From a virus, in the IMG/VR virus record IMGVR_UViG_3300048928_000366, positions 1 through 56,877 of that record: a stretch of DNA of 56,877 nt, one strand, 5' to 3'. Shown one piece after another: positions 9,855 to 56,877 of this stretch. The notes under the pieces were generated by a model. That model ran no database searches. It was not told where the DNA came from and worked only from the letters and a program-made list of their open reading frames with translations. Each line of letters opens with the position of its first letter. The first letter of the stretch is position 1. The translations under genes were made by a program, and so were the position numbers.

Positions 9855-9855
9855 A

Positions 9856-13222: not shown

Positions 13223-13415
13223 CTTGTAAGTTACCCATATTTACCAATATGCGGTACTTACGCAGCATGTTGTAAACAGCCTGGCTATTGCCAAATCGAC
13301 ATCCGCATTCATCAGCTTTTTTTTTCTTATATGCTTCTAATATCACCACAATATCGTCTGGAACATCCACCAGCAACAGATTCTTTTTCTTTTTATCGTC
13401 GCCCATATATATCAA
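13206..13415 (-). CDS. Small putative ribbon-helix-helix DNA-binding protein
   Basis: NLLLVDVPDDIVVILEAYKK has a beta-strand-then-helix pattern. A palindromic operator lies directly upstream. Confidence 0.4.
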   Translation of the reverse strand: MIYMGDDKKKKNLLLVDVPDDIVVILEAYKKKKADECGCRFGNSQAVYNMLRKYRILVNMGNLQDATTT

Positions 13416-13430
13416 TTATATAGCAAAGAT

Positions 13431-13449
13431 ATAGATAAAATCTATTTTG
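13431..13449. promoter_or_regulatory. Perfect palindrome ATAGATAAAATCTAT plus TTTG (late-promoter-like motif, copy 2)
   Basis: Palindrome at 13431-13445. ATAAAATCTAT is shared with 42-52 and 47802-47812. A leftward TATCTTTG -7 box (complement of 13424-13431) abuts it, and a second rightward box TATTTTTG is at 13475-13482. Confidence 0.5.
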
Positions 13450-13506
13450 TAGTAGTCAATGTATAGAAAATATCTATTTTTGTATTGTAATAAACGATCA
13501 CAGCCA

Positions 13507-18386: not shown

Positions 18387-18611
18387 ATGGCACTATTGAT
18401 CAACTACACGGTAGGTGATCCCGGAGCGCCTGTTGATGGGGCTACAAACTACTATAATCCTGGACTTGCAGGAAAGAAGATAAAGGTCTTTCGTGAGGGG
18501 CTTTATCAATACAAATCAGGTATCAATAGAATAATTCCAACAGCCTCCGGGACAATAATTTTTATTCCTGCTCAATGGGCGGGAGAGAGAATACGAATAC
18601 AAACTATATGA
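18387..18611 (+). CDS. Free-standing copy of the ~70-aa module shared with ORFs 96-713 and 7636-9012
   Basis: The whole 74-aa protein aligns with the C-termini of the other two (KIKVFREGLYQ...GTIIFIPAQWAGERIRIQ). Confidence 0.5.
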   Translation: MALLINYTVGDPGAPVDGATNYYNPGLAGKKIKVFREGLYQYKSGINRIIPTASGTIIFIPAQWAGERIRIQTI

Positions 18612-23782: not shown

Positions 23783-24988
23783 ATGCCCAGAACCAGCTCC
23801 ACGTTAGTAGCTAACAATTATATATATGTTAGCTTCAGATGCGACGATGACCGCCTCCGATATCCAACTGGGGTTAAAGATAGTAATTCTCTTGGAAAGT
23901 CCGAATCAAAAAAGATTGAGAAGATTAAAGGACTAATTGACAATTATTCACTTCAATATGAATTACTGGGGCAGCCGGTTAAAAAGGCAGAGCTTGAGTC
24001 CTACCTTGATAGGCTTGTCAAGCCTGATAAGGTTAAAAAGAAATCTGATCGGGATTTTGTCTCTGATCATAAGCGGATGATACAGGCAATGCGGGACGGT
24101 ACGTTGTTAAAGAAAAAAAGCAAAAAGAAATATAGCCCCGCCTCGATAGACCAATATCAACGGATGAGGGAACGATGGGAAGAATGCGCCGCCGACCCTA
24201 CAAGTGGTTTCCTTCTATCCTACGATATGACAATCGAAATATTTCGTAAACTGCTTGTCTGGTTGATTAAAAAGAACTATTCCCAGAATTCGATTTATAA
24301 TATAGTAAACAATCTTGAAATATTTCTAAGGTACGCATATAACGAGGGGTATCACGCAAACAAGATATATGAGCATCGAGAGTTTGCTGTTCCCCAGGAA
24401 GAGTCGGACGCCATAGCTCCAACATATGATGAGGTGATCACCTTATATAATACACCATTTAAAAGAAAGTCAGAAGAGCAGGCGCGCGATCTCTTCGTAT
24501 ATGGTTGTTTTCTTGCACTTAGAGTTAAGGACTTAAACAGAATAAATGAATATAAATTGATAGGTAACGTATATGAGCTATCAACCCAGAAGACTGGCAA
24601 GAAGGTAATTATACCATGTCATTGGATAGGAAGGGAGATATATAATAAGTACAATGGGATAATTCCCACGTTTCTTCGTCAGACTTTTTCACGAATTCTT
24701 CCCCGGATATGTAAGGCGGCTGGCATTACCGGCGAGAAGTTAATTACTATGACGGTCGGAGGGGAGAAAATCGAAAAGTATTACAAACGATGGGATTTGA
24801 TCAGTCCTCACTCGATGAGGCGGTTTTATGCAACCTGGATGTACAGAGATCTACGGCGGCAACCTCGGGAGATAATGGCTATAACTGGTCATGAGTCTGA
24901 AGAATCTTTCTTTAAATACATAAAAATTGAGTTGGAGATGAACGCGCATGAGATTGCAAACGATCCGGCTTTCAAGAAGCCTGTTTGA
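23783..24988 (+). CDS. int: Tyrosine recombinase / phage integrase
   Basis: Catalytic-type motifs LALRVKDL, HSMRRFYAT and GHESEESFFKYI (R...HxxR...H...Y). Confidence 0.9.
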   Translation: MPRTSSTLVANNYIYVSFRCDDDRLRYPTGVKDSNSLGKSESKKIEKIKGLIDNYSLQYELLGQPVKKAELESYLDRLVKPDKVKKKSDRDFVSDHKRMIQAMRDGTLLKKKSKKKYSPASIDQYQRMRERWEECAADPTSGFLLSYDMTIEIFRKLLVWLIKKNYSQNSIYNIVNNLEIFLRYAYNEGYHANKIYEHREFAVPQEESDAIAPTYDEVITLYNTPFKRKSEEQARDLFVYGCFLALRVKDLNRINEYKLIGNVYELSTQKTGKKVIIPCHWIGREIYNKYNGIIPTFLRQTFSRILPRICKAAGITGEKLITMTVGGEKIEKYYKRWDLISPHSMRRFYATWMYRDLRRQPREIMAITGHESEESFFKYIKIELEMNAHEIANDPAFKKPV

Positions 24989-33940: not shown

Positions 33941-35317
33941 TTAAAAAGGTGAATCGTTTGGTTCTGAATAGTTTTGTATCGGCTTCCAGTTACCCGGGAT
34001 CGGCGTGTCATACCCTGGTTTATTAAACCTCATAAAGTTGCCATCGAATTCAAGTTGCACAGTATCCTTTGCACCGTCCCGGTTCTTTGCTACCTTGGCG
34101 TTTACCGTTTTAACTGCACCGAACTGCTCATTATCTGTTTCTTCTGGGGTTAGGAACAGGACAATGTCGGCGTCCTGTTCAATGGCTCCAGATTCTCTCA
34201 GATCGGAAAGAACTGGTTCCTTCCGGCCTCCCTTCTCAATATCACGGCTCATTTGTGATAGAGCGATCACTGGCACACCCAGGTCTTTCGCCATCCCTTT
34301 CAGCTCTCTGGATATCCCAGCAATAACTTGCTCTCTGTTACTTGGTTTCGAATTCTTCGCAGATCCAATTAACTGAAGATAATCTACCATCACACCGTCC
34401 AGCCCGTGCCGAAACTTCATCTGCGTACATTTGCTATGTAGGACCTGGACCGACTGGGAAAAGCTGTCGTCTATGTAGATCGGTAGCTTTGCAAGGTTGG
34501 CCGCAGCATCGTTGAGTATATCCCATTCGTGCATCTGCAGGTGGTTCCTTTGGATCTTCGCGAAGTGAAGACCTGATACAGCCGCCAGGTTACGCTGCAG
34601 AATTTTGTTAGCACTCATTTCTAACGAGAAGAAAGCCATCTTTTTCTGCTTACTGGCCGAATACCGCATTGTCTGCAGGGCGAAAGCTGTTTTCCCGCAC
34701 GAAGGCCGCGCAGCAATGATCACCAACTCCTGTGGCTTGAACCCATAGAAAATGTTGTCTAAATCCGCAAGGCCTGTCTCAATTCCTGAAACTACGTCCG
34801 GCTTTAGTGATTCGATATATCGCAATGTTCCAGTAATTAATCGATCAATCCCGATTAATCCTCCCTGCATGGTGCCTGCCAATAGATTTGTCAGGTCCGT
34901 CTGCAGTTCGTTGATCATCTCGAAGGGATCTTGTGCCCAATCACCAGCGGTTCCGTATGCTTTACCTGCCATTTTCTGTACCTCGCGGGAGAGATATAGT
35001 TCGGCGAGTTTTGCCATATGTACCTCTAAGTTGGCAGAGCTTACAACATCCCTCGTGTATCCGGCCAGCTCACCAGCGGTAATAAGGTGCTCATTTTTCG
35101 ACTTTCTTATCTCTGTCCATATCGTTGTGAGGTCTATTGGTATCCCTGCCTTATATGCCTTTAAAATCGCACTTGCAGTCACTTCGTTCTGTCCCACATA
35201 GAACATCTCCGGTCTAAAGAGAGAGCCAACACGGGCAATTGCTGATTTTTCAAGTAGAATGGCGCCCAAAACAACTCTTTCCAAGTCTTTGTCGAATAGT
35301 ACGTTCGCTTGTGTCAT
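33941..35317 (-). CDS. dnaB: Replicative DNA helicase (DnaB family)
   Basis: Has DnaB N-terminal region, Walker A AARPSCGKTAF, and the motifs SLEMS, DYLQL, ALSQMSR. Confidence 0.9.
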   Translation of the reverse strand: MTQANVLFDKDLERVVLGAILLEKSAIARVGSLFRPEMFYVGQNEVTASAILKAYKAGIPIDLTTIWTEIRKSKNEHLITAGELAGYTRDVVSSANLEVHMAKLAELYLSREVQKMAGKAYGTAGDWAQDPFEMINELQTDLTNLLAGTMQGGLIGIDRLITGTLRYIESLKPDVVSGIETGLADLDNIFYGFKPQELVIIAARPSCGKTAFALQTMRYSASKQKKMAFFSLEMSANKILQRNLAAVSGLHFAKIQRNHLQMHEWDILNDAAANLAKLPIYIDDSFSQSVQVLHSKCTQMKFRHGLDGVMVDYLQLIGSAKNSKPSNREQVIAGISRELKGMAKDLGVPVIALSQMSRDIEKGGRKEPVLSDLRESGAIEQDADIVLFLTPEETDNEQFGAVKTVNAKVAKNRDGAKDTVQLEFDGNFMRFNKPGYDTPIPGNWKPIQNYSEPNDSPF

Positions 35318-36093
35318 GTTAGGCCGATGTTTTTAAGGACTGCGCCGTTACTTCCGCGTGGTTGTGGATTGATGCGAAACTGTTTCAAATCCTGTTTCTT
35401 TAACCAGTTCTGGAAATGAAACCGATAGTCTTTGTCTTGCTTAACAAGTTCCCCTCCAGATTTCAGATACAAATTGAAAGCACCCATAGCATTTGTAAGC
35501 TGCAGTTCACCGATTTTGTTTTGTCGCATTACATGCTCGACGAAGTTTATCTTATCGGCCAAGCAATCAGTAAGCAGGTCATCAATACTCTTCATCACAG
35601 ATCCAGTCGGTGTCGGGTTGTTGCTATTTCCACCTCCACCTCCATTTCCATTTCCTTTCCCTTCCATTTCCTGCGCCGAGCGCCCTACGAGTTCACTATG
35701 TGTTCCCGTAGTGTTAACGGTGTGTCCATCTGAATGCTGTATTATGGCGGATTCTATGATTTGTAACGGAATTGAGTAACGAGCATAACGTTTATCAATA
35801 ACCTGATGTGTATTGAATGTGCGGATTATGTAATAGCTCTCCTGGTTATATTCGAGAGGTATAAGCATCCGGGCATTTACCAGGGTATCAAGCCATTGCT
35901 TTACTTCACTTACTCTTAAATCTTCATCATAAGGAAAGACACGGCTTTTAATGTAAACAGGATTAGATTTAATTACTCCTGCATCGTCCGCAAAGTTGAA
36001 GATGCCGGCAAAAAGTAACCTACAGTCTCTTTTCAAGCGCCCCAACTTTTCATCCTCCCAGAACTCCGGCTTAATTGTCCTAATCTTTGCCAT
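35314..36093 (-). CDS. Replication initiation / replisome organiser protein
   Basis: ATG at 36093 (MAKIRTIKPEFWEDEKL) is preferred. Gly/Asn linker. ATGA-coupled to dnaB. Confidence 0.5.
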   Translation of the reverse strand: MAKIRTIKPEFWEDEKLGRLKRDCRLLFAGIFNFADDAGVIKSNPVYIKSRVFPYDEDLRVSEVKQWLDTLVNARMLIPLEYNQESYYIIRTFNTHQVIDKRYARYSIPLQIIESAIIQHSDGHTVNTTGTHSELVGRSAQEMEGKGNGNGGGGGNSNNPTPTGSVMKSIDDLLTDCLADKINFVEHVMRQNKIGELQLTNAMGAFNLYLKSGGELVKQDKDYRFHFQNWLKKQDLKQFRINPQPRGSNGAVLKNIGLT

Positions 36094-36703
36094 GAAACCT
36101 CCTGCTTTTATGTATAGATAAACTTGTTTCACATAGATTGTAAAACTCCACGCTGTTTCGTCCAAAACTATTCGATTCAGCAGGGTGGTTCCTGAAATGT
36201 ATCTGTTTTATCGCCTCAATTACGCCATCTCCAGTATTCTTTATCCACCTATCAATATATTCCCAGGTACCGGATTCGTCTAATCCTAATTCGTAACAAT
36301 CATTGAAGTCTTTGAAGTCTCGGTACATCTCCGTGCCTGTTACCCTATATATAGTCCATCCGAGCTCGATTAATCTGGAGTCCCTAACATCATCTTTAAT
36401 CTTGTCTTTATGGTATTCTTTACCATCAAGTTCAAGCGCAATTTTGTAGTAAGGATTTCCAAAGTCTAGGAAGTAATTCTCAACCGGGTATTGAGGATAT
36501 AGCGTTATGCCACCTTTACACCTCATGGCATTCCATGCCATCTCCTCTATTGGAGAGAAGAAAAGCGAATAATTGACAACATATACTCCATAGAACTGAG
36601 TTGGGCTTTTCAATGCCAGATCCATTATCTTGTCATGATGAGTTAAGTAGAACTCTTTCAAATCGTTAAGCTGGCTGAAATAATATTCTCTATCCTCAGT
36701 CAT
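36080..36703 (-). CDS. DUF559 / Vsr-like endonuclease-domain protein
   Basis: IALELDGKEYHKDKIKDDVRDSRLIELGWTIYRV matches the DUF559 core pattern. Confidence 0.55.
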   Translation of the reverse strand: MTEDREYYFSQLNDLKEFYLTHHDKIMDLALKSPTQFYGVYVVNYSLFFSPIEEMAWNAMRCKGGITLYPQYPVENYFLDFGNPYYKIALELDGKEYHKDKIKDDVRDSRLIELGWTIYRVTGTEMYRDFKDFNDCYELGLDESGTWEYIDRWIKNTGDGVIEAIKQIHFRNHPAESNSFGRNSVEFYNLCETSLSIHKSRRFHGKD

Positions 36704-39004: not shown

Positions 39005-39646
39005 TTACTTAATTTGAATGCTTTTCTTTTCCTCAATTGAGGCTCCTGGTATCTTTACGCCAGCCTTCAATTGTTCTTTTATCTTTTCCCTGCTTGCTGA
39101 TGCGGTTACGTTAAAAACAGCCAACACTTCATCGGTTATACCTGCTTCCGCGGCCTCGTCGGACATTTCCGGGTTTACCTGAAAGTCAACTTTCACGTAT
39201 CGGAGGATATTGTCTGCAAAGTCGTCTTTCAGTTCAACGGGAGAGGTCTTGCGATAAGTTATTTTCAGCGTTTCGCTTTCCACCTTGTCGTAACCAAATT
39301 GCTGCATGCCCTCATCAATGAGTTTCCGGAATAGTTCTGATTTCTTGTCCGCTTTCGACTTTAGTGATTGCAGACGCTTGATTTCTGCGGCGATGACATC
39401 AGACTCAGCATCCATCTTTTTGATAACGTAAGCATAGCTAATAGCTTTCTCTTTAAATTCCTTTTCATTGAGTCTGAGGGCAGATAACATCTGTTCAGAG
39501 ATCTCTCCGTCATTTTCTTCAATCTCAGCCAAGAGGGACATATGATCCTGACGAATATTAAAAATTGACTTCTTTGGTTTTGGTGCAGGAGTGGGGTTAT
39601 CCATTTGTTCCCGTTCCTGTTCGAATAGTTCTTTACTGGAAGTCAT
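39005..39646 (-). CDS. Siphovirus Gp157-like protein
   Basis: Acidic coiled-coil protein directly downstream of the annealase gene. Its pattern resembles Gp157 family members as I recall them. Confidence 0.45.
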   Translation of the reverse strand: MTSSKELFEQEREQMDNPTPAPKPKKSIFNIRQDHMSLLAEIEENDGEISEQMLSALRLNEKEFKEKAISYAYVIKKMDAESDVIAAEIKRLQSLKSKADKKSELFRKLIDEGMQQFGYDKVESETLKITYRKTSPVELKDDFADNILRYVKVDFQVNPEMSDEAAEAGITDEVLAVFNVTASASREKIKEQLKAGVKIPGASIEEKKSIQIK

Positions 39647-39650
39647 GACA

Positions 39651-40466
39651 TTATTTTTGTGCCGGAGCGGCAGGTGTAAGTTCCTTTCCTTTAGCTGCGA
39701 TAGCTTTATATACAGAGTTGTCCTTATTGATAAGCTCTTTATACATCTCCTTAATCGTTTTTAGGTCTGACAACTCAGTAGCTTTGTTGATGAGGCTAAG
39801 GCATTCCTTTTTCATTATTTCGTCTGGTGAGTCATCAGATTTTGTTTCTGCTTGTGATTTCTGTTGGCCGTGTGGTTGACCACATTCATTCCAGAATGGT
39901 TCGTCTGTCTTTTTTCTCCACTTCACTTCCTTCTTCTTGACCCCGTTTCTTTCTATCTCTACGAATACCTTAATTGCATACTGTTTTACCCATTCTTTAC
40001 TGAACTGAGGCTGCCATAACTCAGTGGCTACCCCTAAGTCTTTACAACACCTTACAATACAATCAGACTTTGCAGATTCGGAGACACTAGCCCATGATTG
40101 CATTTTATTAGACACATGATACTCAGCCTCCCCAACTGCTTCAGATACATAACACCCACGTATCAGAAGTATGCCATCATAGTAGCATTTATTTGCCCCC
40201 GAATCAACCTTGACATCCTTCTTTACTAATGCCCACTGACCAATTCCAAAAGTTTTATTTAGCTTCATCCGTACGAATGCCTGAGGAAGATATATAAGAC
40301 CGTCAGGCCTTATTTCTACCTGTAGTGGGTCTATTGATTCTTCAAGCAGTTTTTGTTCTTCAGGTGTTACTTTTAGGAGTGATGCGTTTGGATAGAAAGA
40401 TGGTTGCTCGACCATTTCCGGAACCATAACCGCATTTTCCATCGCTGATGTTATTTCTGTTCCCAT
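39651..40466 (-). CDS. Rad52/Mgm101-like single-strand annealing protein
   Basis: YLPQAFVRMKLNKTFGIGQWAL and AKSDCIVRCCKDLGVATELW resemble Rad52-family motifs. Confidence 0.5.
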   Translation of the reverse strand: MGTEITSAMENAVMVPEMVEQPSFYPNASLLKVTPEEQKLLEESIDPLQVEIRPDGLIYLPQAFVRMKLNKTFGIGQWALVKKDVKVDSGANKCYYDGILLIRGCYVSEAVGEAEYHVSNKMQSWASVSESAKSDCIVRCCKDLGVATELWQPQFSKEWVKQYAIKVFVEIERNGVKKKEVKWRKKTDEPFWNECGQPHGQQKSQAETKSDDSPDEIMKKECLSLINKATELSDLKTIKEMYKELINKDNSVYKAIAAKGKELTPAAPAQK

Positions 40467-40492: not shown

Positions 40493-41320
40493 TTATTCAG
40501 GTTTAACTCCAGTGATTTCAGTGAATATTTCCCAGGTAAAGTTTGGCAGCTCATAGAATGCTTTGCGGTTGCTTTCGGACCAATTATGCCAAGCATTCTG
40601 GAATGCTTCTTTAAAAGGAATGTCCTTTAGGTATCCTTCGCAGGTGGTGTGTGATGGATATTTTGCCTTCTCTTCTTCCGTCATGTAAGAGGAAGGTACC
40701 CATTGTTTCGTGTCCACTTGGCAGAGTAAAGAGAACGCCTTGCTGTCTTTGAACTGTTGTTCAGTCCAGTTGGAAGGCTGATTAAAAATGGGAAAGGGGG
40801 CAGATCCGGTGCAGAAAGCGCCGGTGTTCCTGTCGCCGGTGTTACTGTAGCCGGTGTTCCTGTAGCCGGTGTTCCAGGAGCCGGTGTTACTGTCGCCGGT
40901 GTTCCTGTCGCCGGTGTTCCTGTCGCCGGTGTTCCTGGAGCCGGTGTTCCTGTAGCCGGTGTTCCAGGAGCCGGTGTTACTGTCGCCGGTGTTCCTGTCG
41001 CCGGTGTTCCTGTCGCCGGTGTTCCTGTCGCCGGTGTTCCTGGAGCCGGTGTTCCTGTCGCCGGTGTTCGCTAACCCAGTATTGCCTTCTCCTGTATTAG
41101 CAATGCCAGCAGCAAGTAATTTTTCAGGGGTAAACATTTTCAGTATATCGTCCGGACATGCGCCATTCTCAGAACACCAGTCTAAATTGTCTTTTGCAAC
41201 TTGTAGCAGATCTTCTTCTGTTTGAGCGTTTCTGACCCGTCGTAGTTGTTCGTGGCAAGGGTTCTTAGTAGCAAGAATCGCCAATGCCGCCTCTTTAATT
41301 TTGTTGAAGTTATTTTCCAT
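40493..41320 (-). CDS. Pentapeptide-repeat protein (about 20 NTGxx units)
   Basis: NTGDRNTGDRNTGDSNTGSWNTGYRNTGSR is repeated. There are globular N- and C-terminal domains. Confidence 0.7.
   Translation of the reverse strand: MENNFNKIKEAALAILATKNPCHEQLRRVRNAQTEEDLLQVAKDNLDWCSENGACPDDILKMFTPEKLLAAGIANTGEGNTGLANTGDRNTGSRNTGDRNTGDRNTGDRNTGDSNTGSWNTGYRNTGSRNTGDRNTGDRNTGDSNTGSWNTGYRNTGYSNTGDRNTGAFCTGSAPFPIFNQPSNWTEQQFKDSKAFSLLCQVDTKQWVPSSYMTEEEKAKYPSHTTCEGYLKDIPFKEAFQNAWHNWSESNRKAFYELPNFTWEIFTEITGVKPE
40805..41100. repeat. 15-nt tandem coding repeat with a 90-nt higher-order duplication
   Basis: Units of gccggtgttcctgtc type were read directly. Unit pattern DR-DR-DS-SW-YR-SR is followed by DR-DR-DS-SW-YR-YS. 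Confidence 0.85.
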
Positions 41321-47667: not shown

Positions 47668-47797
47668 GATTTTGTGTTTTTGAGGTTTTTGTTTTTCATT
47701 AACAACTCAAAGGTAAGAACATAATTTGAATAAACAAATTATTTTTTCAAGTTTGGTGAATAATATTGGTCTGGTTTGAAGAGTGGTATATTATACC

Positions 47798-47819
47798 ATA
47801 TATAAAATCTATACCTTTG
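47798..47819 (+). promoter_or_regulatory. Late-promoter-like motif ATATATAAAATCTATA-CC-TTTG (copy 3)
   Basis: The 16-mer is identical to 38-53. TACCTTTG (47812-47819) fits TAnnTTTG. The perfect palindrome ATAGATAGTATCTAT (47829-47843) lies between this box and ATG 47847. Confidence 0.55.
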
Positions 47820-47846
47820 TGTAAAATAATAGATAGTATCTATACT

Positions 47847-48971
47847 ATGGATGTCATCTCTGTAAAAATTGACGAGGTTAAATTAAATCCAAATAATCCA
47901 AGGGTGATAAAAGATGATAAGTTTAAAAAACTTGTTCAATCTATTTTGTCTTTCCCTGAAATGCTCGAAATAAGGCCAATCGTGGTGAATGATGAAATGA
48001 TAGTATTGGGAGGCAACATGCGCCTAAAAGCTTGCGAGGCGGCAGGATTAAAAACGGTACCAATCATCAAAGCATCAGACCTTACACCAGATCAACAAAG
48101 AGAATTTATTATAAAGGACAATGTGGGTTTTGGAGAATGGGATTATGAAATGTTGGCAAATGAATGGGAGGAAGACCAATTAGTTGAGTGGGGATTAGAT
48201 ATTCCCATAATTGATGATGAACAAGCTACTCCAGAAGACGATGGCTTTCAGGTGCCAGAAGATGTGCAAACTGATATTGTGCCAGGCGATCTTTTCGAAA
48301 TTGGAGGGCACCGTATATTATGTGGAGATAGCTGCAATATCGATGATGTCGATAGGCTTATGGGCGGAGAAAAAGCAGATCTGGTATTTACTGATCCCCC
48401 CTATGATCTTGAAGATGATTACTCATCGAATTTATTTATTATATCAAAGGAAGATTGCCATGTATTCATAATGAACAGTGACAGGAAGATTATAGAGATA
48501 AGCGCTAAGAATATTGATTATTTCAAGAAAATATATGCTGTAGACTTCCGTCAGGCACGGTTAGTGTCAAACAACCAGCCCATGACTCGTGTTGACTTAA
48601 TAGCGGAGTTTAATAAGGGGAAGGGACGGTTTATCAATACAAATGATGGATTTTCCACACTCATCGAATGCTCAAAGATTCACTCAGACAAAGTTGAATT
48701 AAATCATGGGCACAAGCAGGCAAAAAGGGTCGAACTTCCTGGAAAGTTCATAGAACATTATTCCATAAAAGGAGATATCGTTGTTGACTTGTTTCTTGGT
48801 GCAGGTAGCACATTAATTGCAAGTGAGCAAATGGATAGGACTTGCTATGGAATGGAAAAAGATCCAAAAAATGTTCAGATAATAATCAACAGACTCACAG
48901 AGCACATGAAAAATGACGGGAAGAAGGTAGCAATAAAGCTAAACGGTGAAAAGTATGTGCCTGTGATATAG
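47847..48971 (+). CDS. ParB-like nuclease domain fused to an N6-adenine/N4-cytosine DNA methyltransferase
   Basis: N-terminal ParB/Srx-like region (LNPNNPR..., GGNMRLKA), DPPY motif (LVFTDPPYDL), and C-terminal FxGxG (VDLFLGAGST). ATG 47847 is preferred over TTG 47766. Confidence 0.75.
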   Translation: MDVISVKIDEVKLNPNNPRVIKDDKFKKLVQSILSFPEMLEIRPIVVNDEMIVLGGNMRLKACEAAGLKTVPIIKASDLTPDQQREFIIKDNVGFGEWDYEMLANEWEEDQLVEWGLDIPIIDDEQATPEDDGFQVPEDVQTDIVPGDLFEIGGHRILCGDSCNIDDVDRLMGGEKADLVFTDPPYDLEDDYSSNLFIISKEDCHVFIMNSDRKIIEISAKNIDYFKKIYAVDFRQARLVSNNQPMTRVDLIAEFNKGKGRFINTNDGFSTLIECSKIHSDKVELNHGHKQAKRVELPGKFIEHYSIKGDIVVDLFLGAGSTLIASEQMDRTCYGMEKDPKNVQIIINRLTEHMKNDGKKVAIKLNGEKYVPVI

Positions 48972-49971: not shown

Positions 49972-50361
49972 ATGCCAAGAACGAAAGAGGACATACTGAA
50001 AGATGGTGCAAAAACCAGGTTTTCAAGCTCAAATCAGCCCAAAAACTACAGAGGGTCTACTAAGATGCTGACTGAAATGCTGATGAAGGATTTGGATAGC
50101 AAAAAGGACATTATAATAGAAGGCATAGATGTGTTAACAGGAGAGAAGCGAAAGATACGTGTACCTGTCCCCACAAAGGCTATCATCACCCGAGCGCTGC
50201 TTACCAAGGCAGCAAAGGGTGATGTATATGCTATTAGAGAAGTATTTGATAGGGTAGAGGGCAAAGCGCAGCAAAATATAGATGTAACTACAGACGGAGA
50301 ATCCCTGAACGAGAAGAGGCCGTCTGCAAAGTTGCCTGATGGTACTATACTCGAAATATGA
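49972..50361 (+). CDS. terS: Putative terminase small subunit
   Basis: 129 aa, basic N-terminus. Overlaps the terL start (ATGA). Confidence 0.5.
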   Translation: MPRTKEDILKDGAKTRFSSSNQPKNYRGSTKMLTEMLMKDLDSKKDIIIEGIDVLTGEKRKIRVPVPTKAIITRALLTKAAKGDVYAIREVFDRVEGKAQQNIDVTTDGESLNEKRPSAKLPDGTILEI

Positions 50362-51665
50362 TTTATACGCCAACCGTAGATTTACAGAAAAATCCCAAAC
50401 AGTACGAGTACTTTATTGAGTTGGTAAAGGCTTGTAATGGGATTACTAACTACCGTAAATTCCTGTATGGTGGCGCGATTAGGGGCGGAAAAACCTATGT
50501 TACCTTATGGGATCTAATTTACTTAGCGAACCGATATGAAGGTTCGAAGTGGCATACAATACGAGAAGACTTCCCTGTACTTCAGGCAACTACAATTCCC
50601 TCATTTGAGAAGATTATAAGGGGCTCTACTAATTGGAAGTGGAACCGGGATCGGGCCAATTACTTCGCCTATAACAAAAAGGATTCAAAGATCTTCTTTA
50701 AGGGAGAGAATATCAAGCAGGACCCTGAATTAAATGACTTCTTGGGGCTTGAAACAAATGGTATATTCTGGGAGCAGCTGGAACAGATAAATAAGAAATC
50801 ATATCAGATAGGGAACTCTCGTTGCGGCTCTTGGTATATCGACCCAATGCCACCAGCATTCACCTTTGGGACACTGAATCCTACCCAAAAATGGCCAAAG
50901 GAAGAGTTTTTCATTAAATGGATCAATAACGAATTGCCGCCAGATGTATATTTCCAACACGCTCTGCCTACAGACAATGCTTTTGTGACAGCGGATCAAT
51001 GGGACATATGGGGGCAGATGGATGAGCGATATCAAAAACAGTTCATAGAGGGCGATTGGACCAACTTCGACGAGAAAGATAACCGGTTTGTTTACTCCTA
51101 CTCAGACGACAAGCACCTGGGAGAGCCAGCGCTGGACATCCGCAAGGAGATCTATCTATCATTCGACTTTAACAAGGACCCAATCACCTGCAGCGTATGG
51201 CAGTTCTATGAGGGTAAGATATTCGGTATCGAGCAAATCAAATTAGGTAATTCTAACATATTCGAGCTTTGCGACTACATCAACGTTAACTATCCGCGAG
51301 GAGTGTTCTGGGTAACTGGGGACGCTACCGGTAAAAACAGTTCTGCCCTGGTTAAGGATAACTCTAACTACTATACTGTAATCAAACAGAAGCTGAACCT
51401 CTCTATAACACAGCTTAAAGTGCCGGCTGTTAACCCGTCATTAGAAGAGAATAGAGTGCTCGTAAACGCGATCTTCCACAGGCACCCGATAGTACTGCAC
51501 AAAGAGAAGATGAAGGCCCTTATATGGGACCTGAAGAACGTTCGTGTGGACGTAGAGGGGATGATCATCAAAGAGAACCGTAAAGATCCGGCGCAACAGG
51601 CCGACTGTCTGGATACCTGCCGGTACTTCTTGAATACCTTCTTTAGCTGGTTCCTGAAAGCATAG
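50358..51665 (+). CDS. terL: Terminase large subunit
   Basis: Walker A YGGAIRGGKTY and C-terminal nuclease-like acidic motifs. 435 aa. Confidence 0.8.
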   Translation: MIYTPTVDLQKNPKQYEYFIELVKACNGITNYRKFLYGGAIRGGKTYVTLWDLIYLANRYEGSKWHTIREDFPVLQATTIPSFEKIIRGSTNWKWNRDRANYFAYNKKDSKIFFKGENIKQDPELNDFLGLETNGIFWEQLEQINKKSYQIGNSRCGSWYIDPMPPAFTFGTLNPTQKWPKEEFFIKWINNELPPDVYFQHALPTDNAFVTADQWDIWGQMDERYQKQFIEGDWTNFDEKDNRFVYSYSDDKHLGEPALDIRKEIYLSFDFNKDPITCSVWQFYEGKIFGIEQIKLGNSNIFELCDYINVNYPRGVFWVTGDATGKNSSALVKDNSNYYTVIKQKLNLSITQLKVPAVNPSLEENRVLVNAIFHRHPIVLHKEKMKALIWDLKNVRVDVEGMIIKENRKDPAQQADCLDTCRYFLNTFFSWFLKA

Positions 51666-52482
51666 GAACATTGTTAACTGCCATTTGTATCATCTTTTGG
51701 TTGCCCTCATAAGTAAAATACTGCTCGTAAATGGCCGGTATTGCCCGTTGTTTCCTTATAATCTCTTCTTCGGGTATAGCAGATAGTATCTCATGTACGC
51801 TGTGCGCATTCTCAGCCTCTATAATCACCCCATACTCGTCGAATGGTATATTATGCGGTATTACGAATTCATCGCTTATATAGACCGGAATAGAGCCATA
51901 TTGCAATGCTTCCTGAACCCGGAAGGAAGTAGGGCCGAAACCCCTGGGGCATAGTGTAAAAGTTGACTGCATCAGAACAGAGCAGAAAGCCTGGATACTG
52001 TACTTATGCGTCCGGATTAAAGCGCCTCGTTGGTAAGTCAGCTTAACTAGTTCCTCCCGTATCGGGTGAGTTAGATTCCCAATGAAGTTGTACAGGTACC
52101 GGCGCTTCACTGGCATGTGATAATACTCGTGCGCCTGGGCGATCAGTGGCAGCGGGTAATCCGTCCTGCCACCCGACATGCTGAATACAATGATATCCAG
52201 ATCTTTCAGGTCGTTCTGAATACCGTGGTCGTACTGCACAATCGTGTAATACCGTTTCGACCGATCCAGTCCGTTCAGGAACTTCTGCAGGTCAACCATT
52301 GCCGGCTTGTGCTGCCCGAACTTGTGCCTGCAGTAATATGCTGTCCAGAAGACAGGCAGATATTCGCGATCCTCCGTGCCTAAGTGGTGATTCTCGTAAT
52401 ACCAGCGCTCAAAGTCAGTATGGTTATCCTCTGGATAGCGAAATGGGTGCTTTGGCCGGAACTTCTCTGGTACGTATATCAT
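51643..52482 (-). CDS. Exostosin-like (GT47-like) glycosyltransferase
   Basis: TFTLCPRGFGPTSFRVQEALQYGSIPVYISD resembles the exostosin-family C-terminal motif. Last gene of the leftward operon, with a 23-nt convergent overlap with terL. Confidence 0.5.
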   Translation of the reverse strand: MIYVPEKFRPKHPFRYPEDNHTDFERWYYENHHLGTEDREYLPVFWTAYYCRHKFGQHKPAMVDLQKFLNGLDRSKRYYTIVQYDHGIQNDLKDLDIIVFSMSGGRTDYPLPLIAQAHEYYHMPVKRRYLYNFIGNLTHPIREELVKLTYQRGALIRTHKYSIQAFCSVLMQSTFTLCPRGFGPTSFRVQEALQYGSIPVYISDEFVIPHNIPFDEYGVIIEAENAHSVHEILSAIPEEEIIRKQRAIPAIYEQYFTYEGNQKMIQMAVNNVPMLSGTS

Positions 52483-52688
52483 TTGAAAGGGTTCAAAGGA
52501 GCAGGTAAAACGGTCCGCCCAAACAACTTACCTGACTTATAGATATACAAATTGCCATGAGCGTCATTGACAAGGTTGTAGTATAATTTCAGATGCTTAT
52601 AGATCCTCGGACAGAAAAAAGCCCATGTCGCACGCAAGATATGCAATATGGCTTTTGCGATCAGAATTGATATAATTATTTCTTTCAT
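52479..52688 (-). CDS. Small membrane protein
   Basis: 69 aa with ATGA overlaps on both sides. Confidence 0.5.
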   Translation of the reverse strand: MKEIIISILIAKAILHILRATWAFFCPRIYKHLKLYYNLVNDAHGNLYIYKSGKLFGRTVLPAPLNPFK

Positions 52689-52843
52689 GTTTCTCTTATT
52701 ATTGGTTCAGACATATTCCCGCATTGCGGGCATTCCAGTTCAGTAGTGATCACCGGCCACACAGCAACCCATTGGTGAGTGCAAATAGGGCATTCCACAG
52801 GTGCGGATTGCCATGGACCGGTGTATTCTTCTTCTTGGCTCAT
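52685..52843 (-). CDS. Small zinc-ribbon protein (52 aa, below the ORF-track cutoff)
   Basis: My own translation gives MSQEEEYTGPWQSAPVECPICTHQW...ECPQCGNMSEPIIRET. ATGA overlaps on both sides. Confidence 0.5.
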   Translation of the reverse strand: MSQEEEYTGPWQSAPVECPICTHQWVAVWPVITTELECPQCGNMSEPIIRET

Positions 52844-53133
52844 GCTGCTGTCATTTTTCGATTATCGTATTGGCGTTTCTGCTCCAGAAGATCCTCGAGG
52901 GTTTTATCCTGACAGATGCTAAATATTAAATAGGGGGCAACGATTCCGTCTGTATTAATGGATATACCTATGTAATCGTTTGGGTATAATCCATCTATGT
53001 CCCAGAAGAGCAGTTTGTTTTCACACTCTTCCCCAGGGCCATACGACGTAACGTCTATTGGAGCACCAAAGTGATCAATGATAAGATTGAACGACTGCTC
53101 AGATATATCAATAGGTACTTGGAAAACGGCCAT
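52840..53133 (-). CDS. Hypothetical protein
   Basis: 97 aa. Its ATG overlaps the upstream stop by 1 nt and its stop overlaps the downstream ATG (ATGA). Confidence 0.5.
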   Translation of the reverse strand: MAVFQVPIDISEQSFNLIIDHFGAPIDVTSYGPGEECENKLLFWDIDGLYPNDYIGISINTDGIVAPYLIFSICQDKTLEDLLEQKRQYDNRKMTAA

Positions 53134-53762
53134 TAGTTTACCTTTAAAAGTGATTTACGTATATACCATGCATCTCCCCATGTGCCGCCAGCCCAGTTGG
53201 TTTCTACCCGCTGGAATTCGGTCAGGAACTCGTCCAGGTGGTGAACCTTGGCGCAGCCTTCGTAGACTTCATCTCGGTTGACTTCTGTGTATATGTAGTC
53301 GATACCTTTTAGCGTCTCTGTAGCCCCTTTAAGCACTTCCAGCTCGTATCCCTGCACATCCATCACGAGCAGATTCATGACGCACCTGAATAGCTCGAAT
53401 TCATCCAGGGGGCGTACTTCTACCTCTTCAGTCTCGGTGAACTGGATGGACGGATACTGCTGCAGATGCTTTGCCGGCTTCAGGAGTGAATTGCTCATGC
53501 CTTGGTTGGCTTGCTCGACATTCATGGTAGCAATCCCAAATTCTGCGCCGCAAGCGGAGTTGATGAGAGTAACACCCGGCACCTGACCAAACGTGGCTGT
53601 AAGCACCTCAAAGGCCTTGCTGCATGGTTCAATAAATACCACTTCCGATATGCCAGCGCGCTCGTATTCCGCGTACTCCTGGCCGTAATGGGCACCTACA
53701 TGTATTATTCCATCTATGTTTAGGTTGTACTTTTGTATCGATTCTTTGAAGCTAATCAGCAT
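53133..53762 (-). CDS. FkbM-family methyltransferase
   Basis: IIHVGAHYGQEYAEY...VVFIEP matches the FkbM pattern. ATG 53762 is preferred, giving an 11-nt overlap instead of 119 nt. Confidence 0.65.
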   Translation of the reverse strand: MLISFKESIQKYNLNIDGIIHVGAHYGQEYAEYERAGISEVVFIEPCSKAFEVLTATFGQVPGVTLINSACGAEFGIATMNVEQANQGMSNSLLKPAKHLQQYPSIQFTETEEVEVRPLDEFELFRCVMNLLVMDVQGYELEVLKGATETLKGIDYIYTEVNRDEVYEGCAKVHHLDEFLTEFQRVETNWAGGTWGDAWYIRKSLLKVN

Positions 53763-54276
53763 ATATGAAGGCGATTTTATCGTGAAAGTTTGCCTTGAAT
53801 GGGAATGTGCCCATTTCCCATTGGCCCAGAATTGTCTGCTCAAATGGCAGCCCTTGACTGTAAAACTCATCCCTGCAACAATGCAAATCCTCCACTACAT
53901 AGAATTTAGAAGATCCGATGAGCGAGTACATTGTGATCAACTGGTCTCTGCTGTTATGGCTACCATCATCAATTATGACGTCGAAATGCCTGTTGTTTCG
54001 GAGGTTATACAATATTTCGTGGTCCAGCTGATTACCCTTGATAAACTCTACGCCTGGAATATCAGGGATGGGATGCTCATCAAACAGGTCAAGTACAGTA
54101 ATCTGAGCATCGGGGAATATTTCGCGCCACATCCGGACGCTGTTTCCCTTCTCACACCCTATCTCAAGGATGGAAGTGATTTGCTGCGGGGATGCCAGAT
54201 ACCACTCGTACCATCGAATATACCCATGCGTTGCCTTGTCTGTGCCGTGCTTCTCGGCGATCTCTTGCCAGGTCAT
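53752..54276 (-). CDS. Class I SAM-dependent methyltransferase
   Basis: HGTDKATHGY...ILEIGCEKGNS...VLDL...IIDDGSH is motif I and post-I of sugar-type O-methyltransferases. Confidence 0.65.
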   Translation of the reverse strand: MTWQEIAEKHGTDKATHGYIRWYEWYLASPQQITSILEIGCEKGNSVRMWREIFPDAQITVLDLFDEHPIPDIPGVEFIKGNQLDHEILYNLRNNRHFDVIIDDGSHNSRDQLITMYSLIGSSKFYVVEDLHCCRDEFYSQGLPFEQTILGQWEMGTFPFKANFHDKIAFIYAD

Positions 54277-54277
54277 A

Positions 54278-55012
54278 TTAGTATTTTATTTGAATCCATG
54301 AATCGGGAATGATATCGTCGGTGCACAAATGCGCGTTACCAGGTCCGAACCAGTTGTATTTAGAGGGGCTTACCACCACCTTGTCGGGGTTCTGATTCAG
54401 CCATGCACCCCACCAGGAGAAAGTACTGTTACTGATGATCTGATGTTGGCAGCTGGACATAAGTTCGAGGTCTTCCCGCCCTGTACGGCCTTCTGAGAAG
54501 AACCAATCATAAGCATCATACAATTTTTGGGGCAGCTCGAAGCGCACAAACTTTTTGCACCATTCAATATCATCACTGAAAAACATGAAACGTTCCACCT
54601 CTGCTAAGCCAAGTACACGATGAATTGCTTGGATAAGGAATTCTTTGGTCACCACTGGGTGCTTATCTGGATATTTGAGGTAATCCCCCCTACGAACATG
54701 TATAGCGCATGTCTCGGGGAACACCGGCATCCAATTATATCCGAACGCTTTCAGCACCTCTTCCCGGCAGTGGGCGAAGTAGCGTTCGCTCTGCCAATAG
54801 CCGTCAAGTACCAAGTTGAAATATATGTTTATAAACCCGGATGGTAATTCCTGATATTGATGCCCCTCTTCCCGTATTGTAATAGCACCTCTTGGCGGTA
54901 CAGTTGACAGTTTGTATTCAAATCCCAGTTTTTTTGCATATCCGATAGCCGCCGCCATCTGAAAGAGGTTGTTCCCTAAACGCCCGTACTGTTTAGCGTA
55001 TACTGTGCTCAT
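54278..55012 (-). CDS. GT11-family alpha-1,2-fucosyltransferase-like glycosyltransferase
   Basis: GRLGNNLFQ, HVRRGDY and ISNSTFSWWGAWL match the three GT11 signature motifs. Confidence 0.7.
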   Translation of the reverse strand: MSTVYAKQYGRLGNNLFQMAAAIGYAKKLGFEYKLSTVPPRGAITIREEGHQYQELPSGFINIYFNLVLDGYWQSERYFAHCREEVLKAFGYNWMPVFPETCAIHVRRGDYLKYPDKHPVVTKEFLIQAIHRVLGLAEVERFMFFSDDIEWCKKFVRFELPQKLYDAYDWFFSEGRTGREDLELMSSCQHQIISNSTFSWWGAWLNQNPDKVVVSPSKYNWFGPGNAHLCTDDIIPDSWIQIKY

Positions 55013-55209
55013 ATAATTTCGTCAATAGTGTTACGAATATCCTTCCGGAACTTTTTTGATATTAGACAACAAATAGCAGTCCCTAACAGTATTAGGGGCC
55101 AGATAATATATAGATAGCTTACCTTTCGTATCGGATATCCAAGCAACATTGTCCCTGAAAAGAATAACGCTGTAGAGATTATACTATATATAACAAATAA
55201 ATTATACAT
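55009..55209 (-). CDS. Small two-TM membrane protein
   Basis: 66 aa with ATGA overlap. Confidence 0.5.
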   Translation of the reverse strand: MYNLFVIYSIISTALFFSGTMLLGYPIRKVSYLYIIWPLILLGTAICCLISKKFRKDIRNTIDEII

Positions 55210-55210
55210 T

Positions 55211-55900
55211 CTACCTGAGCGTTTTTATGAGATCCTTTACCTCTGCCGCTTTCTTCATGTTGTAATCGCATTCCTCCAGGAAGCCGCTGCCTTTATGGAC
55301 CCTGTGGAAATATTCCATATCCCGCAGGACGAAGAAGCTGCCGCCGTCTTTCAGCCATAAGTAATTGAACCAGATCGTATCTGTTCCTTTCATTGCCTCG
55401 TTGTACTGGAAGACCCGCAGATACTCCTGCCTGTTGACTACGTAGTTGCAGGTATTGAAAAGGCAGTCGCCAAGTGGCTTACTGATAACCGATTTAGCTG
55501 TTTCTGAATTGATTACCTGGCCGGCAAACTTCCGGTAGTCAAACTGTGGTTTAGCGAAGGACGGGCAGTAAATAAAATCCTTTCGCATCTTGCCGAAAGG
55601 GATAGCATCCAAGTACGAGCCGTCAATCACGTTATCGCTATCAAATAGGATACACCATTCGTTATGTGCGTATTCAATCGCGCGGGCCTTGTTCCGGCTC
55701 ATGCCCAGGTTGCCCTCATTCTGGTAGAACCTGACCTTACCATACCCTGATAGGGTGTAGAAGAGTTGATCCACTACCTCCGGCTTGCTGCAGTCATCGA
55801 CAATCACGATTTCACTAATGCGCGGATCATCCAGTACTTGCCGGAAACTTTCAATAGTTAGGTCGTACCGGTTATATGTTGTTATGCAGAGAGAGAGCAT
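55211..55900 (-). CDS. GT2-family glycosyltransferase
   Basis: LSLCITTYNRYD...IVIVDDCS...LFDSDN shows GT-A fold motifs. Confidence 0.75.
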   Translation of the reverse strand: MLSLCITTYNRYDLTIESFRQVLDDPRISEIVIVDDCSKPEVVDQLFYTLSGYGKVRFYQNEGNLGMSRNKARAIEYAHNEWCILFDSDNVIDGSYLDAIPFGKMRKDFIYCPSFAKPQFDYRKFAGQVINSETAKSVISKPLGDCLFNTCNYVVNRQEYLRVFQYNEAMKGTDTIWFNYLWLKDGGSFFVLRDMEYFHRVHKGSGFLEECDYNMKKAAEVKDLIKTLR

Positions 55901-56118
55901 GATAAATGTAAATTCAAAATGTTATCAATTAAATACTGTTTGGCCTCAGCTGAATTCATGTCACTATAAGGAATAGTTACTTCTCCTTTCGCTGTAATTT
56001 GACCTTTTGTCAATTCAAAGCGTATGATCGTTTCGCATGGTGTTGTGACCTCGCTCCCATATCCGCCCAAAGCAGTGAAACTAGTACTAACGCTTATTAT
56101 TTGGATGTAATTACTCAC
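55882..56118 (-). CDS. Hypothetical protein
   Basis: 78 aa. Overlaps both neighbours. Confidence 0.45.
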   Translation of the reverse strand: MSNYIQIISVSTSFTALGGYGSEVTTPCETIIRFELTKGQITAKGEVTIPYSDMNSAEAKQYLIDNILNLHLSCSLSA

Positions 56119-56729
56119 TTATAGAATCGTTTAGCTTGATTGTTGAAATATTTATAGTTGATATCCATCTTGCATATGTCACTATACCCGAACCGCTGTT
56201 CCGCTGCCTGTGGGTAGACAATGAATGACGGGAACTGGTGCTGCAACGTATGTGCAAACCACACATCAATCGTGTTTGTCCTATCTACTATTTCCGGGAT
56301 CTTCATGTTTTCCGCCAACCACGTAGTCATTTCATCACCATATAATATGGCGTGGGTAGTTACCACTCCCTTTGCCCGATACAGCCAATTACCTACCCGT
56401 TTGAGCGTCTGAGTGGCATTGCCACCCAGATACAACATGCGCCATCTGTCTGGCAGCTCGTTATATGCTTCGAGTAATGCCGGATATGACCTGGTGAAAT
56501 GAACGTCGTCCTCCAATATCAGTATCTGCTTGCCGGCATTCTCCTGAAAAATCCGTTGGTAAGACATGTGTATGCCCTTCATTGGATTCTCATCCTGAAT
56601 AGCCTGGAATCGTTCCACCTCAATACCGAATGCGTCAAACTCCCTCTGAGCAAGTTCCCAGCGGTCCTTCCGGTGATCAAGATTTATGCAGATTGCTTTA
56701 TCAAACATTATTAAATGAATTGGCCCCAT
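56115..56729 (-). CDS. GT25-family (LPS-type) glycosyltransferase
   Basis: AICINLDHRKDRWELAQREF...RFQAI and ILEDDV fit the Glyco_transf_25 pattern. ATG 56729 is preferred over TTG 56735. Confidence 0.6.
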   Translation of the reverse strand: MGPIHLIMFDKAICINLDHRKDRWELAQREFDAFGIEVERFQAIQDENPMKGIHMSYQRIFQENAGKQILILEDDVHFTRSYPALLEAYNELPDRWRMLYLGGNATQTLKRVGNWLYRAKGVVTTHAILYGDEMTTWLAENMKIPEIVDRTNTIDVWFAHTLQHQFPSFIVYPQAAEQRFGYSDICKMDINYKYFNNQAKRFYK

Positions 56730-56758
56730 GTACAATACTGATCGGGGCCGTTTTTTTT
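56722..56758 (+). terminator. Hairpin plus T8 (plus-strand terminator-like); its 5' arm (plus-strand orientation) covers codons 2-3 of the GT25 gene
   Basis: GGCCCC (56722-56727) pairs with GGGGCC (56744-56749) across a 16-nt loop, then T8 (56751-56758). Confidence 0.45.
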
Positions 56759-56877
56759 ATGGTAATTTCCTTTAACGAAACAAAGTTATATATAAAATCT
56801 ATATCGTTTGCAAATACTATAGATAAAACTATATAACTTTGTTGTATGGCATTACTGAATGACTGTTCTTCTAATTA
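56751..56877. repeat. Terminal direct repeat (copy 2), identical to 1-127
   Basis: Read directly. It includes the first 32 nt of the ORF starting at 96. Confidence 0.95.

Follow-up and report, generated by a model that had tools for sequence, protein, structure and literature searches.

A glycosyltransferase and methyltransferase cassette paired with a conserved GT8-fold gene in an uncultured phage family: a candidate system for virion glycosylation

Predicted Function of the Cassette

The IMG/VR virus record IMGVR_UViG_3300048928_000366 (positions 1 to 56,877; this stretch of 56,877 nucleotides is referred to below as the window) carries between its terminase and tail genes a minus-strand operon (51643-56729) coding for four glycosyltransferases (GTs) and two methyltransferases (MTs), all six predicted to be soluble, and carries among its structural genes a further GT-like gene (9009-9854) of GT8-type fold. 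We tentatively favour the reading that the operon serves the late, cytoplasmic glycosylation of the phage's own virion proteins. Drawing on nucleotide sugars of the host, among them a donor of the GDP-L-fucose type, the six enzymes would build a short hetero-oligosaccharide and O-methylate it, and the acceptor would be one or more virion proteins, modified in the cytoplasm during structural gene expression. The family-wide GT8-fold enzyme would supply a basal or priming sugar that the cassette elaborates, and the outcome would be virions with a lineage-specific glycan coat. The late timing, the protein acceptor, the cooperation of the GT8-like enzyme with the cassette and the identities of the sugars are parts of this scheme that we infer. 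Virion glycosylation is favoured because the GT8-fold gene is fixed in the late operon, several unrelated lineages carry sugar-enzyme cargo only in the structural region, often in the same direction as the head genes, the promoter module has mirrored halves, functions for export and ligation are absent, and the nearest homologues from isolates are in lytic phages, with no close cell-encoded homologues found.

Enzymes of the Operon

The operon is convergent with the large terminase gene (TerL; 50358-51665), the 3' ends of TerL and of the last operon gene overlapping by 23 bp, and its 11 open reading frames (ORFs) are joined by junctions of -19 nt (overlap) to +1 nt (gap). A sequence-only reading, made earlier by a model from the letters and a list of ORFs, had described an eleven-gene operon at this site. 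Its placement between terminase and tail genes was correct, and profile searches supported the GT25-like, GT2, GT11, FkbM and GT47-like assignments, all five with Pfam matches above the gathering-score cut-offs against which matches were judged.

The first gene codes for a GT25-like glycosyltransferase of 204 amino acids (aa; 56115-56729) that matched PF01755 in two stretches (9e-9; 35.9 bits against a cut-off of 24) and phrog_2835 'glucosyltransferase' (6e-7), and that contains an EDD motif. It is 60-71% identical in four related loci (L002, L084, L085, L093), and relatives give only faint GT25 scores. A GT2 enzyme of the GT-A type (55211-55900; 229 aa) matched PF00535 (5.5e-16; 59.4 bits against 23.3) with weak similarity to PglI, WcaA and EpsD and 60-63% identity in relatives; no NCBIfam equivalog attained its cut-off. 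The third glycosyltransferase (54278-55012; 244 aa) belongs to the GT11 family of alpha-1,2-fucosyltransferase type (PF01531, 5.9e-28, 98.4 bits against 23.9; phrog_2644, 4e-42). Both motifs reported from the letters are present in it, HVRRGDY, which fits the GDP-fucose-binding motif HxRRxD, and SNSTFSWW, and homologues occur in 103 phage records, mainly those of cyanomyoviruses. A class-I S-adenosylmethionine MT (53752-54276; 174 aa) follows, whose Pfam scores were under the cut-offs, though an MT assignment was supported by phrog_21658 'methyltransferase' (1e-27) and by PDB matches to the deoxysugar O-methyltransferases MycE (3ssm; 3.3e-10 over 91 residues) and TylE (8ia9; 1e-5). At 174 aa compared to ~400 aa for enzymes of the MycE/TylE type, it has a putative MycE/TylE-like core and the auxiliary domains are absent. 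The second MT is of the FkbM family (53133-53762; 209 aa) with matches to PF05050 (1.2e-17; 65 bits against 22.7) and TIGR01444 (8e-17; 62 bits against 37.7); its ORF reaches 53870, and the start is most likely the ATG at 53762, as given by the gene call on a near-identical contig, and not 53870.

The last gene codes for a GT47/exostosin-like glycosyltransferase (51643-52482; 279 aa) that matched PF03016 (Exostosin_GT47; 6.5e-18; 65.5 bits against 33.4) and RXYLT1_C (6e-9), with an alignment to EXT2 in PDB (1.2e-8) limited to the C-terminal ~130 residues and no PHROG family. Among its 502 homologues the best 120 are all metagenome proteins, many of them on 52-58-kb contigs, and isolated phages gave matches in only 4 records. 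Approximately 34 of these best 120 are FkbM::GT47 fusions, which argue that both enzymes share one substrate. None of the six cassette enzymes has a predicted membrane segment.

These assignments leave the product reasonably constrained, as it would be a short O-methylated hetero-oligosaccharide with a fucose-type or related GDP-sugar residue. A methylated fucose-type glycan would fit the GDP-fucose motif of GT11 together with the MycE/TylE-like MT, the FkbM MT and the GDP-mannose 4,6-dehydratase (Gmd) and GDP-mannose 3,5-epimerase (GME) of sister cassettes, consistent with the methylated, possibly fucose-containing oligosaccharide proposed earlier. In view of these sister cassettes, GT11 may take GDP-L-Gal or a different GDP-sugar as its donor. 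The ~50 larger ORFs scanned (smaller ORFs were covered only partly) included no nucleotide-sugar enzyme, therefore the donors would be supplied by the host, and the term 'phage-autonomous' in the sequence-only reading was too strong.

The five small ORFs between the enzymes proved to be, as had been described, two small membrane proteins (by hydropathy), a zinc ribbon (CxxC...CxxC) and two unknowns with no family match in Pfam or NCBIfam and, for one of them only, a weak PHROG match (phrog_13849). That one (55882-56118; 78 aa; GTG start) is not kept at its position in relatives, and the other (52840-53133; 97 aa) is absent from L002, L084 and L085. A 66-aa protein with two predicted transmembrane (TM) helices (55009-55209) has a 28% match in L002 only, its slot being filled by non-TM ORFs in L084 and L085, and a 69-aa protein with one N-terminal TM helix (52479-52688) has a 46% homologue in L002. 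The 52-aa zinc-ribbon protein (52685-52843; CPIC...CPQC; weak zinc-ribbon Pfam matches) has an 84% identical copy in L084 and a 62% identical copy in L085, elsewhere in the cassette. The small ORFs vary among relatives, with partial counterparts only for the zinc ribbon and the two membrane peptides, and most of them were rejected as pathway parts because they are poorly kept among close relatives. The eleven-gene layout stands; with most small ORFs unconserved and the enzymes kept, the functional unit would therefore be the six enzymes, as an accessory set. A candidate hairpin across the GT25 start codon (GGCCCC-N16-GGGGCC) was no better than shuffled sequences (z = -0.99) and was also rejected.

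A Conserved GT8-Fold Gene Beside the Portal

The ORF at 9009-9854 (plus strand) had been called GT8-like from its letters, and the call held for the fold of the protein and not for its sequence profile, as no match was found in Pfam (Glyco_transf_8 included), PHROG, NCBIfam or to PDB sequences. The AlphaFold model, built with 31 homologues, has a pLDDT (predicted local distance difference test) of 95.5. Foldseek matched this model in PDB to XXYLT1, the UGGT catalytic domain, glycogenin, LgtC, GlyE and WbbM (E 1e-8 to 1e-7), with a probability of 1.0 and TM-scores of 0.5-0.6 to XXYLT1, UGGT, glycogenin and LgtC; viral GT8-like matches were obtained as well. A DxD motif, D92-x-D94, is invariant in the 31 homologues. 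A GT-A fold of the GT8/GT24 type is supported by this predicted structure.

The gene is translationally coupled and lies between the gene of a 458-aa structural protein and the portal gene. A scan of IMG/VR gave at least 267 loci with a relative, and 80 of these loci were retrieved. Most of these 80 share the order p458, GT8-like gene, portal, p307, a variable gap, a scaffold-like gene and the putative capsid gene, with the tail genes and TerL upstream. The GT8-like gene is as conserved as the portal gene, and is present at loci where the cassette is missing (L003/L171, L091) as well as in a prophage in a 237-kb contig. Judged by this conservation and position, it is a core member of the late structural operon, with or without the cassette. 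At two loci a GT2-like gene was observed on the same strand nearby: directly upstream at ~9250 in L110, giving tandem GTs in the structural operon, and ~1 kb upstream at ~3995 in L105.

Cassettes at Two Hot Spots

All six enzymes are found in the same order and place as in the window, with 56-82% identity, in L002 (TerL 83%), L084, L085 and L093, and their divergence is about that of the structural proteins. L084 and L085 are 57-58-kb contigs of an NCBI metagenome. L003 (TerL 68% identical) has no cassette and its first tail-operon gene follows directly after TerL. The TerL|tail junction, occupied in the window and these four relatives, is one of two hot spots; the other is the p307|scaffold junction, 0.25 to 6.9 kb long, where the cassette is found in L141, L143, L147, L145, L125 and the P0079 contig. 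Other sets at the p307|scaffold junction are two GT2 genes with FkbM (L104), GT2-like genes with FkbM and Gmd (L113), GT7-type galactosyltransferases with a cassette-type MT (L112), a GT25::GT1-like fusion with a DXD GT and FkbM (L142 and L101) and a GT2::GT7 fusion (L139). Sugar enzymes beyond the GT8-like gene are carried by at least 24 of the 84 family loci. Such varied sets at the same hot spots look like diversifying glycan islands, and by its distribution the cassette is accessory and horizontally exchangeable, with its six enzymes syntenic.

Synteny of the cassette extends to unrelated viral contigs (L083, with GT2, GT11, MT, FkbM and GT47; L021; L011; L025; L086). One strand of L025 holds portal, p307, GT2, GT11, FkbM, GT25 and a GME gene (2e-99 to 8sg0), then the putative capsid genes, and the cassette of L086 has a head maturation protease gene on one side and the gene of a virion structural protein on the other. 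Nucleotide-sugar synthesis genes are present in the relatives L113, L025 and L011. GME was observed in the sugar cassettes of both L025 (5679-6635) and L011 (12035-13075), at 2e-99 to plant/bacterial GME structures, which implies GDP-L-galactose or GDP-L-gulose donors, so the GT11-type enzymes there may not be strict fucosyltransferases.

When 185,579 species genomes were scanned with the GT47 profile, five hits were obtained. The two best (44-45% identity) are on phage-like contigs and the remaining three have 29-33% identity, the contigs of the two best only having been examined; close cell-encoded homologues of the GT47-like enzyme thus appear to be lacking from this species-genome scan. 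The best hit, L086 (CALRIT020000001.1; 402 kb; 33% GC), is filed under a Vulcanococcus limneticus metagenome-assembled genome (MAG). The 20.8 kb retrieved from it have 30-38% GC and almost all large ORFs on one strand, with GT2, GT11, FkbM::GT47 and GT25, and L086 probably represents either a huge phage or a contig that bears a phage and was assigned in error to a cyanobacterial MAG. In L087, a Saprospiraceae MAG contig of 32-36% GC, the GT47-like gene comes right after the gene of a 623-aa protein (7761-10441) with three Ig domains and a BNR-like propeller, and RecT is coded on the same contig; this is probably another phage, with a GT beside a surface protein.

NinG-like and HNH/NUMOD4 homing-endonuclease-like ORFs were observed between cassette genes of L084 (5398-5796 and 8081-8665), and the GT11 gene of L085 is apparently split in two (7505-8250). 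Judged by these sequences, selfish elements target the cassette, which also decays occasionally. It is unlikely, in our estimate, that the enzymes serve another acceptor, such as a cytoplasmic protein of the host, an oligosaccharide (soluble or secreted) or a small molecule, or that they have no current function and belong to a hitch-hiking mobile cassette. The endonuclease-like ORFs, the apparently split GT11 and the loss of the cassette would agree with this, and a prophage GT11 enzyme fucosylates free lactose in vitro (PMC12748750). However, gene order, intact frames and the 56-82% identity were kept while the structural proteins diverged as much, and FkbM and GT47 were repeatedly fused, which argues for purifying selection on a joint pathway.

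Mirrored Promoter Modules

The window ends in an exact 127-bp direct repeat (1-127 and 56751-56877), therefore the assembly closes into a circle, with a genome of 56,750 bp, in which the promoter region of the operon runs on into the window start. Between the operon and the tail operon lies a symmetric divergent module of 61 bp (56781-56841, repeated at 31-91 via the end repeat) with the structure CAAAGTTA-N9-ATCTATA-N14-TATAGAT-N9-TAACTTTG, in which two outward-facing predicted -7 boxes (CAAAGTTA leftward, spanning 56781-56788 in plus-strand coordinates; TAACTTTG rightward) flank an inverted repeat. The module is kept in five genomes (the window, L002, L084, L085 and L093) and occurs exactly twice in the genome. 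Its second copy (13424-13482), also present in L092 and L093, has to its left three small antisense ORFs of unknown function (12684-13406), which it would drive, and to its right the head operon, at the hot spot where relatives hold sugar cassettes, ThyX or RNA ligase. A promoter shared with the tail operon had been proposed earlier, and the divergent module, the second copy of which heads the head operon, lends support to this. As the cassette would be read from the mirror half of a module that heads structural operons, it would be co-regulated with these operons and probably expressed late.

Two further observations concern these elements. An ATCTAT-N16-ATAGAT inverted repeat with a TAnnTTTG box was found at 47807-47834, upstream of the packaging operon of ParB::methyltransferase, DUF5131 and terminase, and may be a candidate site for a regulator common to both divergent modules. 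At 84-98 of the window only 5 nt separate the end of the rightward -7 box TAACTTTG from the annotated ATG (96) of the first tail-operon gene, which would have either a leaderless mRNA or a true start further downstream.

Core gene, hot spots and mirrored modules can be combined into a two-tier system, which we consider possible and rather doubtful. The conserved GT8-fold enzyme would prime structural proteins, and swappable cassettes at the two hot spots, fired from the mirror side of late promoter modules, would elaborate fucosylated, O-methylated host-like glycans, giving virion 'serotypes'.

Export Functions, Acceptor and Alternative Targets

No ORF of the genome has more than three predicted TM segments, and the ORF with three is that of the tape-measure-like protein (1907-4726). 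With no TM segment in the seven enzymes (GT8-like included) and no polytopic membrane protein, the phage therefore has no flippase, polymerase, ligase, Gtr or acyltransferase; the sequence-only reading had likewise seen no flippase, no polymerase and no nucleotide-sugar genes.

This bears on host-envelope remodelling (lysogenic conversion or receptor masking), a plausible function of the operon that we rate as less probable than virion glycosylation. The soluble enzymes would add or cap residues on lipid-linked intermediates of lipopolysaccharide (LPS)/O-antigen, capsule or Bacteroidota O-glycans, host flippases and ligases would export them, and the altered surface would block superinfection, or keep progeny off infected cells and debris. 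The phage is temperate, with a tyrosine integrase (23783-24988) and a relative integrated in the 237-kb contig, and the cassette is accessory and antisense to the late genes in most loci, as is usual for independently expressed temperate-phage morons. It also has its own host-type -7 box, hot spots that accept other moron-like cargo as well, and two small membrane proteins. Cytoplasmic prophage GTs altering wall glycopolymers exist, e.g., TarP of S. aureus. The predicted chemistry matches Bacteroidetes O-glycans with fucose and 2-O-methyl-rhamnose (PMC8698959), and an envelope role is the usual interpretation of cyanophage 'LPS/cell-wall' clusters (PMC9602691). However, a flippase, Gtr, acyltransferase, polymerase and priming phosphoglycosyltransferase are all missing from the genome ORFs, the small membrane ORFs lack conservation among close relatives, and several lineages have the cassette embedded among head genes and co-directional with them. 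The searches gave no close cell-encoded homologue pointing to a recent capture from a glycan locus of the host, and the closest isolate homologues belong to obligately lytic phages, strictly lytic cyanomyoviruses, therefore the function would not be tied to lysogeny. An envelope role also leaves the fixation of the GT8-fold gene beside the portal across the family unexplained.

As in seroconverting prophages (GtrABC, O-acetyltransferases, Wzy-type polymerases, TarP), a temperate phage carries accessory glycan-modifying genes; unlike Gtr/Oac/Wzy modules, the window has no polytopic membrane proteins (GtrA, GtrC, acyltransferase-3, Wzy), its maximum being three TM segments, and it has six enzymes, embedded in the structural region, compared to one to three in those prophages. 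The general protein O-glycosylation of Bacteroidetes (lfg-type loci) shares a fucosyltransferase and O-methylated deoxyhexose chemistry with the cassette (PMC8698959). That system is lipid-linked, flipped and transferred in the periplasm, whereas the window has neither flippase nor oligosaccharyltransferase and no match to an NCBIfam equivalog.

Hypermodification of DNA, in which the GTs would glycosylate hydroxymethylated phage bases against restriction, is highly improbable. Phage GT-A/GT-B enzymes do build mono- to oligosaccharides on 5-hydroxymethylcytosine, and their genes have as neighbours either those of a C5-methyltransferase and 5mYOX or those of thymidylate-synthase-like hydroxymethylases (bioRxiv 10.1101/2023.12.21.572611). 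A ParB::DNA methyltransferase (N6/N4; 47766-48971) is coded 3 kb from the operon; however, base-hydroxymethylation genes (C5-methyltransferase plus 5mYOX, deoxynucleoside monophosphate hydroxymethylase) had no Pfam match among the larger ORFs scanned, on which ground DNA glycosylation was rejected, and the cassette is in the structural and not in the replication module. To our knowledge GT11, GT47 and sugar O-methyltransferases are not DNA-acting families.

Several points weigh against the virion as target. No acceptor was identified. The putative capsid protein and p186 (putative tube) lack a Ser/Thr-rich C-terminal extension, and their C-termini are conserved irrespective of sugar cargo. The cassette is dispensable, being missing from L003, and sugar cargo is antisense to the structural genes at 16 loci compared to co-directional at 8. 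Cargo at the p307|scaffold junction is not confined to sugar enzymes, as ThyX (L106) and RNA ligase (L092) are found there too. Late timing is deduced solely from promoter architecture; the three enzymes searched (FkbM, GT11 and GT47-like) have no mycobacteriophage homologue; and no cultured member of the family was found.

The sole region with at least 11 Ser/Thr per 25 residues is in an 822-aa protein. An all-beta module of ~65 aa was observed at 522-707, 8797-9000 and 18387-18611; two structural proteins, of 205 and 458 aa, carry it at their C-termini, and one copy is a stand-alone 74-aa ORF. Its copies have 39-49% identity (E 2e-9 to 2e-14) with a model pLDDT of only 65, and its role could lie in assembly, in decoration or as an acceptor.

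Comparison with Known Viral Glycan Systems

Mycobacteriophage operons (Corndog/cluster O with an O-methyltransferase and three tandem GTs; Che8; Myrna) are reported to decorate the capsid and tail tube (PMC11600133, PMC12363180, both citing Freeman et al. 2023). They resemble the window in that tailed phages, some of them temperate, code for soluble GTs clustered with a methyltransferase. Unlike those systems, the window has the GT11, GT25 and GT47 families and no C-terminal acceptor tail was seen, its host is probably a Gram-negative member of the Bacteroidota, and glycosylation is here a prediction from the genes. A tblastn search of 50,697 phage records with FkbM, GT11 and the GT47-like enzyme (GT2, GT25 and the class-I MT were not searched) gave no mycobacteriophage.

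Closest in gene content are the 'LPS/cell-wall synthesis and modification' clusters of cyanomyoviruses (S-SRM01, P-SSM2, S-SCSM1, S-SCSM2R). The S-SRM01 region contains GT2, a 'putative transferase', FkbM, two alpha-1,2-fucosyltransferase genes, GT2 and GT25, near genes for GDP-fucose synthesis. The FkbM of the window is 48% identical to that of cyanophages S-SRM01 and P-SSM2, and its GT11 is 31-33% identical to cyanophage GT11. The function of the cyanophage clusters is only hypothesised (PMC9602691, PMC12801897). They lie among the auxiliary metabolic genes of large lytic T4-like genomes with their own genes for GDP-fucose and other nucleotide sugars. By contrast, the window has its cassette among the structural genes of a temperate phage of 57 kb; no donor-synthesis genes were found, the cassette includes a GT47-like enzyme seldom met in isolated phages, and it is paired with a family-wide GT8-fold core gene.

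The chlorovirus PBCV-1 (A064R, A075L, A111/114R, A071R) uses GTs and a rhamnose 2-O-methyltransferase to make a fucose-containing methylated capsid glycan (PMC7019647). It resembles the window in its virus-encoded soluble GTs with a sugar methyltransferase, and it works without the host secretory machinery (PMC7019647). Of the systems whose function has been demonstrated, this one and the mycobacteriophage operons come nearest to the window. PBCV-1, compared here by description, differs as a eukaryotic giant virus with an N-linked glycan on an atypical sequon and multidomain enzymes.

Phage Genome and Probable Host

By its 127-bp end repeat and integrase the window is a complete circular temperate tailed phage. 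Its other identified genes code for a DnaB helicase (33941-35317), a Gp157-like protein (39005-39646), an Mgm101/Rad52-type annealase (39651-40466), a virion structural protein (4723-7635) and the portal (9856-11823), followed in the head operon by a scaffold-like protein (14048-14917) and the putative capsid protein (14958-16085). In the early region we also observed a DUF559/MTES_1575 endonuclease-like protein (36080-36703) and a pentapeptide-repeat protein (40493-41320; Pentapeptide_2, 2e-29), which from its sequence may mimic DNA or counter host defences.

One public run contains a near-identical contig. No isolated phage is similar to the window at the DNA level, and a megablast search of the operon against the 50,697 phage records gave no match. 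Homologues of the putative capsid and GT8-like proteins were also not found in isolated phages, so there is no cultured model or host at hand, and scanning the GTDB species genomes for TerL gave no prophage. The terminases of Bacteroides, Flavobacterium and Cellulophaga phages share 23-26% identity with TerL. The Bacteroidota -7 motif TAnnTTTG is not in excess overall (40 sites genome-wide compared to ~43 expected); 15 of the 40 sites fall in intergenic DNA, which is 7.5% of the genome, and 10 of these 15 are 5-70 nt upstream of a gene start in the correct orientation. Scans for sigma-70 promoters and terminators were at or below chance. The intergenic placement of the motif makes a Bacteroidota host likely, and the phage belongs to an uncultured family of ~55-58-kb temperate tailed phages, for which Bacteroidota are the probable hosts.

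Significance

Clusters of GT, FkbM, GT11 and GT25 genes were already known in cyanomyoviruses (PMC9602691, PMC12801897), as were mycobacteriophage operons of GTs and an O-methyltransferase that are reported to glycosylate virions (PMC11600133). New here are the phage family and, as its sequences suggest, a modular architecture of a core GT8-fold gene with exchangeable cassettes. If the two-tier system is true, it would have no precedent outside giant viruses and the phages of Actinobacteria. If the target is the host envelope, the operon would represent flippase-free lysogenic conversion in Bacteroidota. Either way, the cassette provides a compact set of soluble GTs and sugar methyltransferases for glyco-engineering, including a rare GT47-like enzyme often fused to FkbM. 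If the glycan is on virions, as we tentatively favour, glycosylation of phage particles would not be peculiar to mycobacteriophages and would extend to an abundant uncultured family with Gram-negative hosts, in which a core GT with exchangeable cassettes would give a modular logic comparable to O-antigen diversity. This would matter for phage stability, for adsorption to mucus or particles, for grazing and for recognition by immune systems, and also for the interpretation of 'auxiliary' phage glycan genes in metagenomic data.

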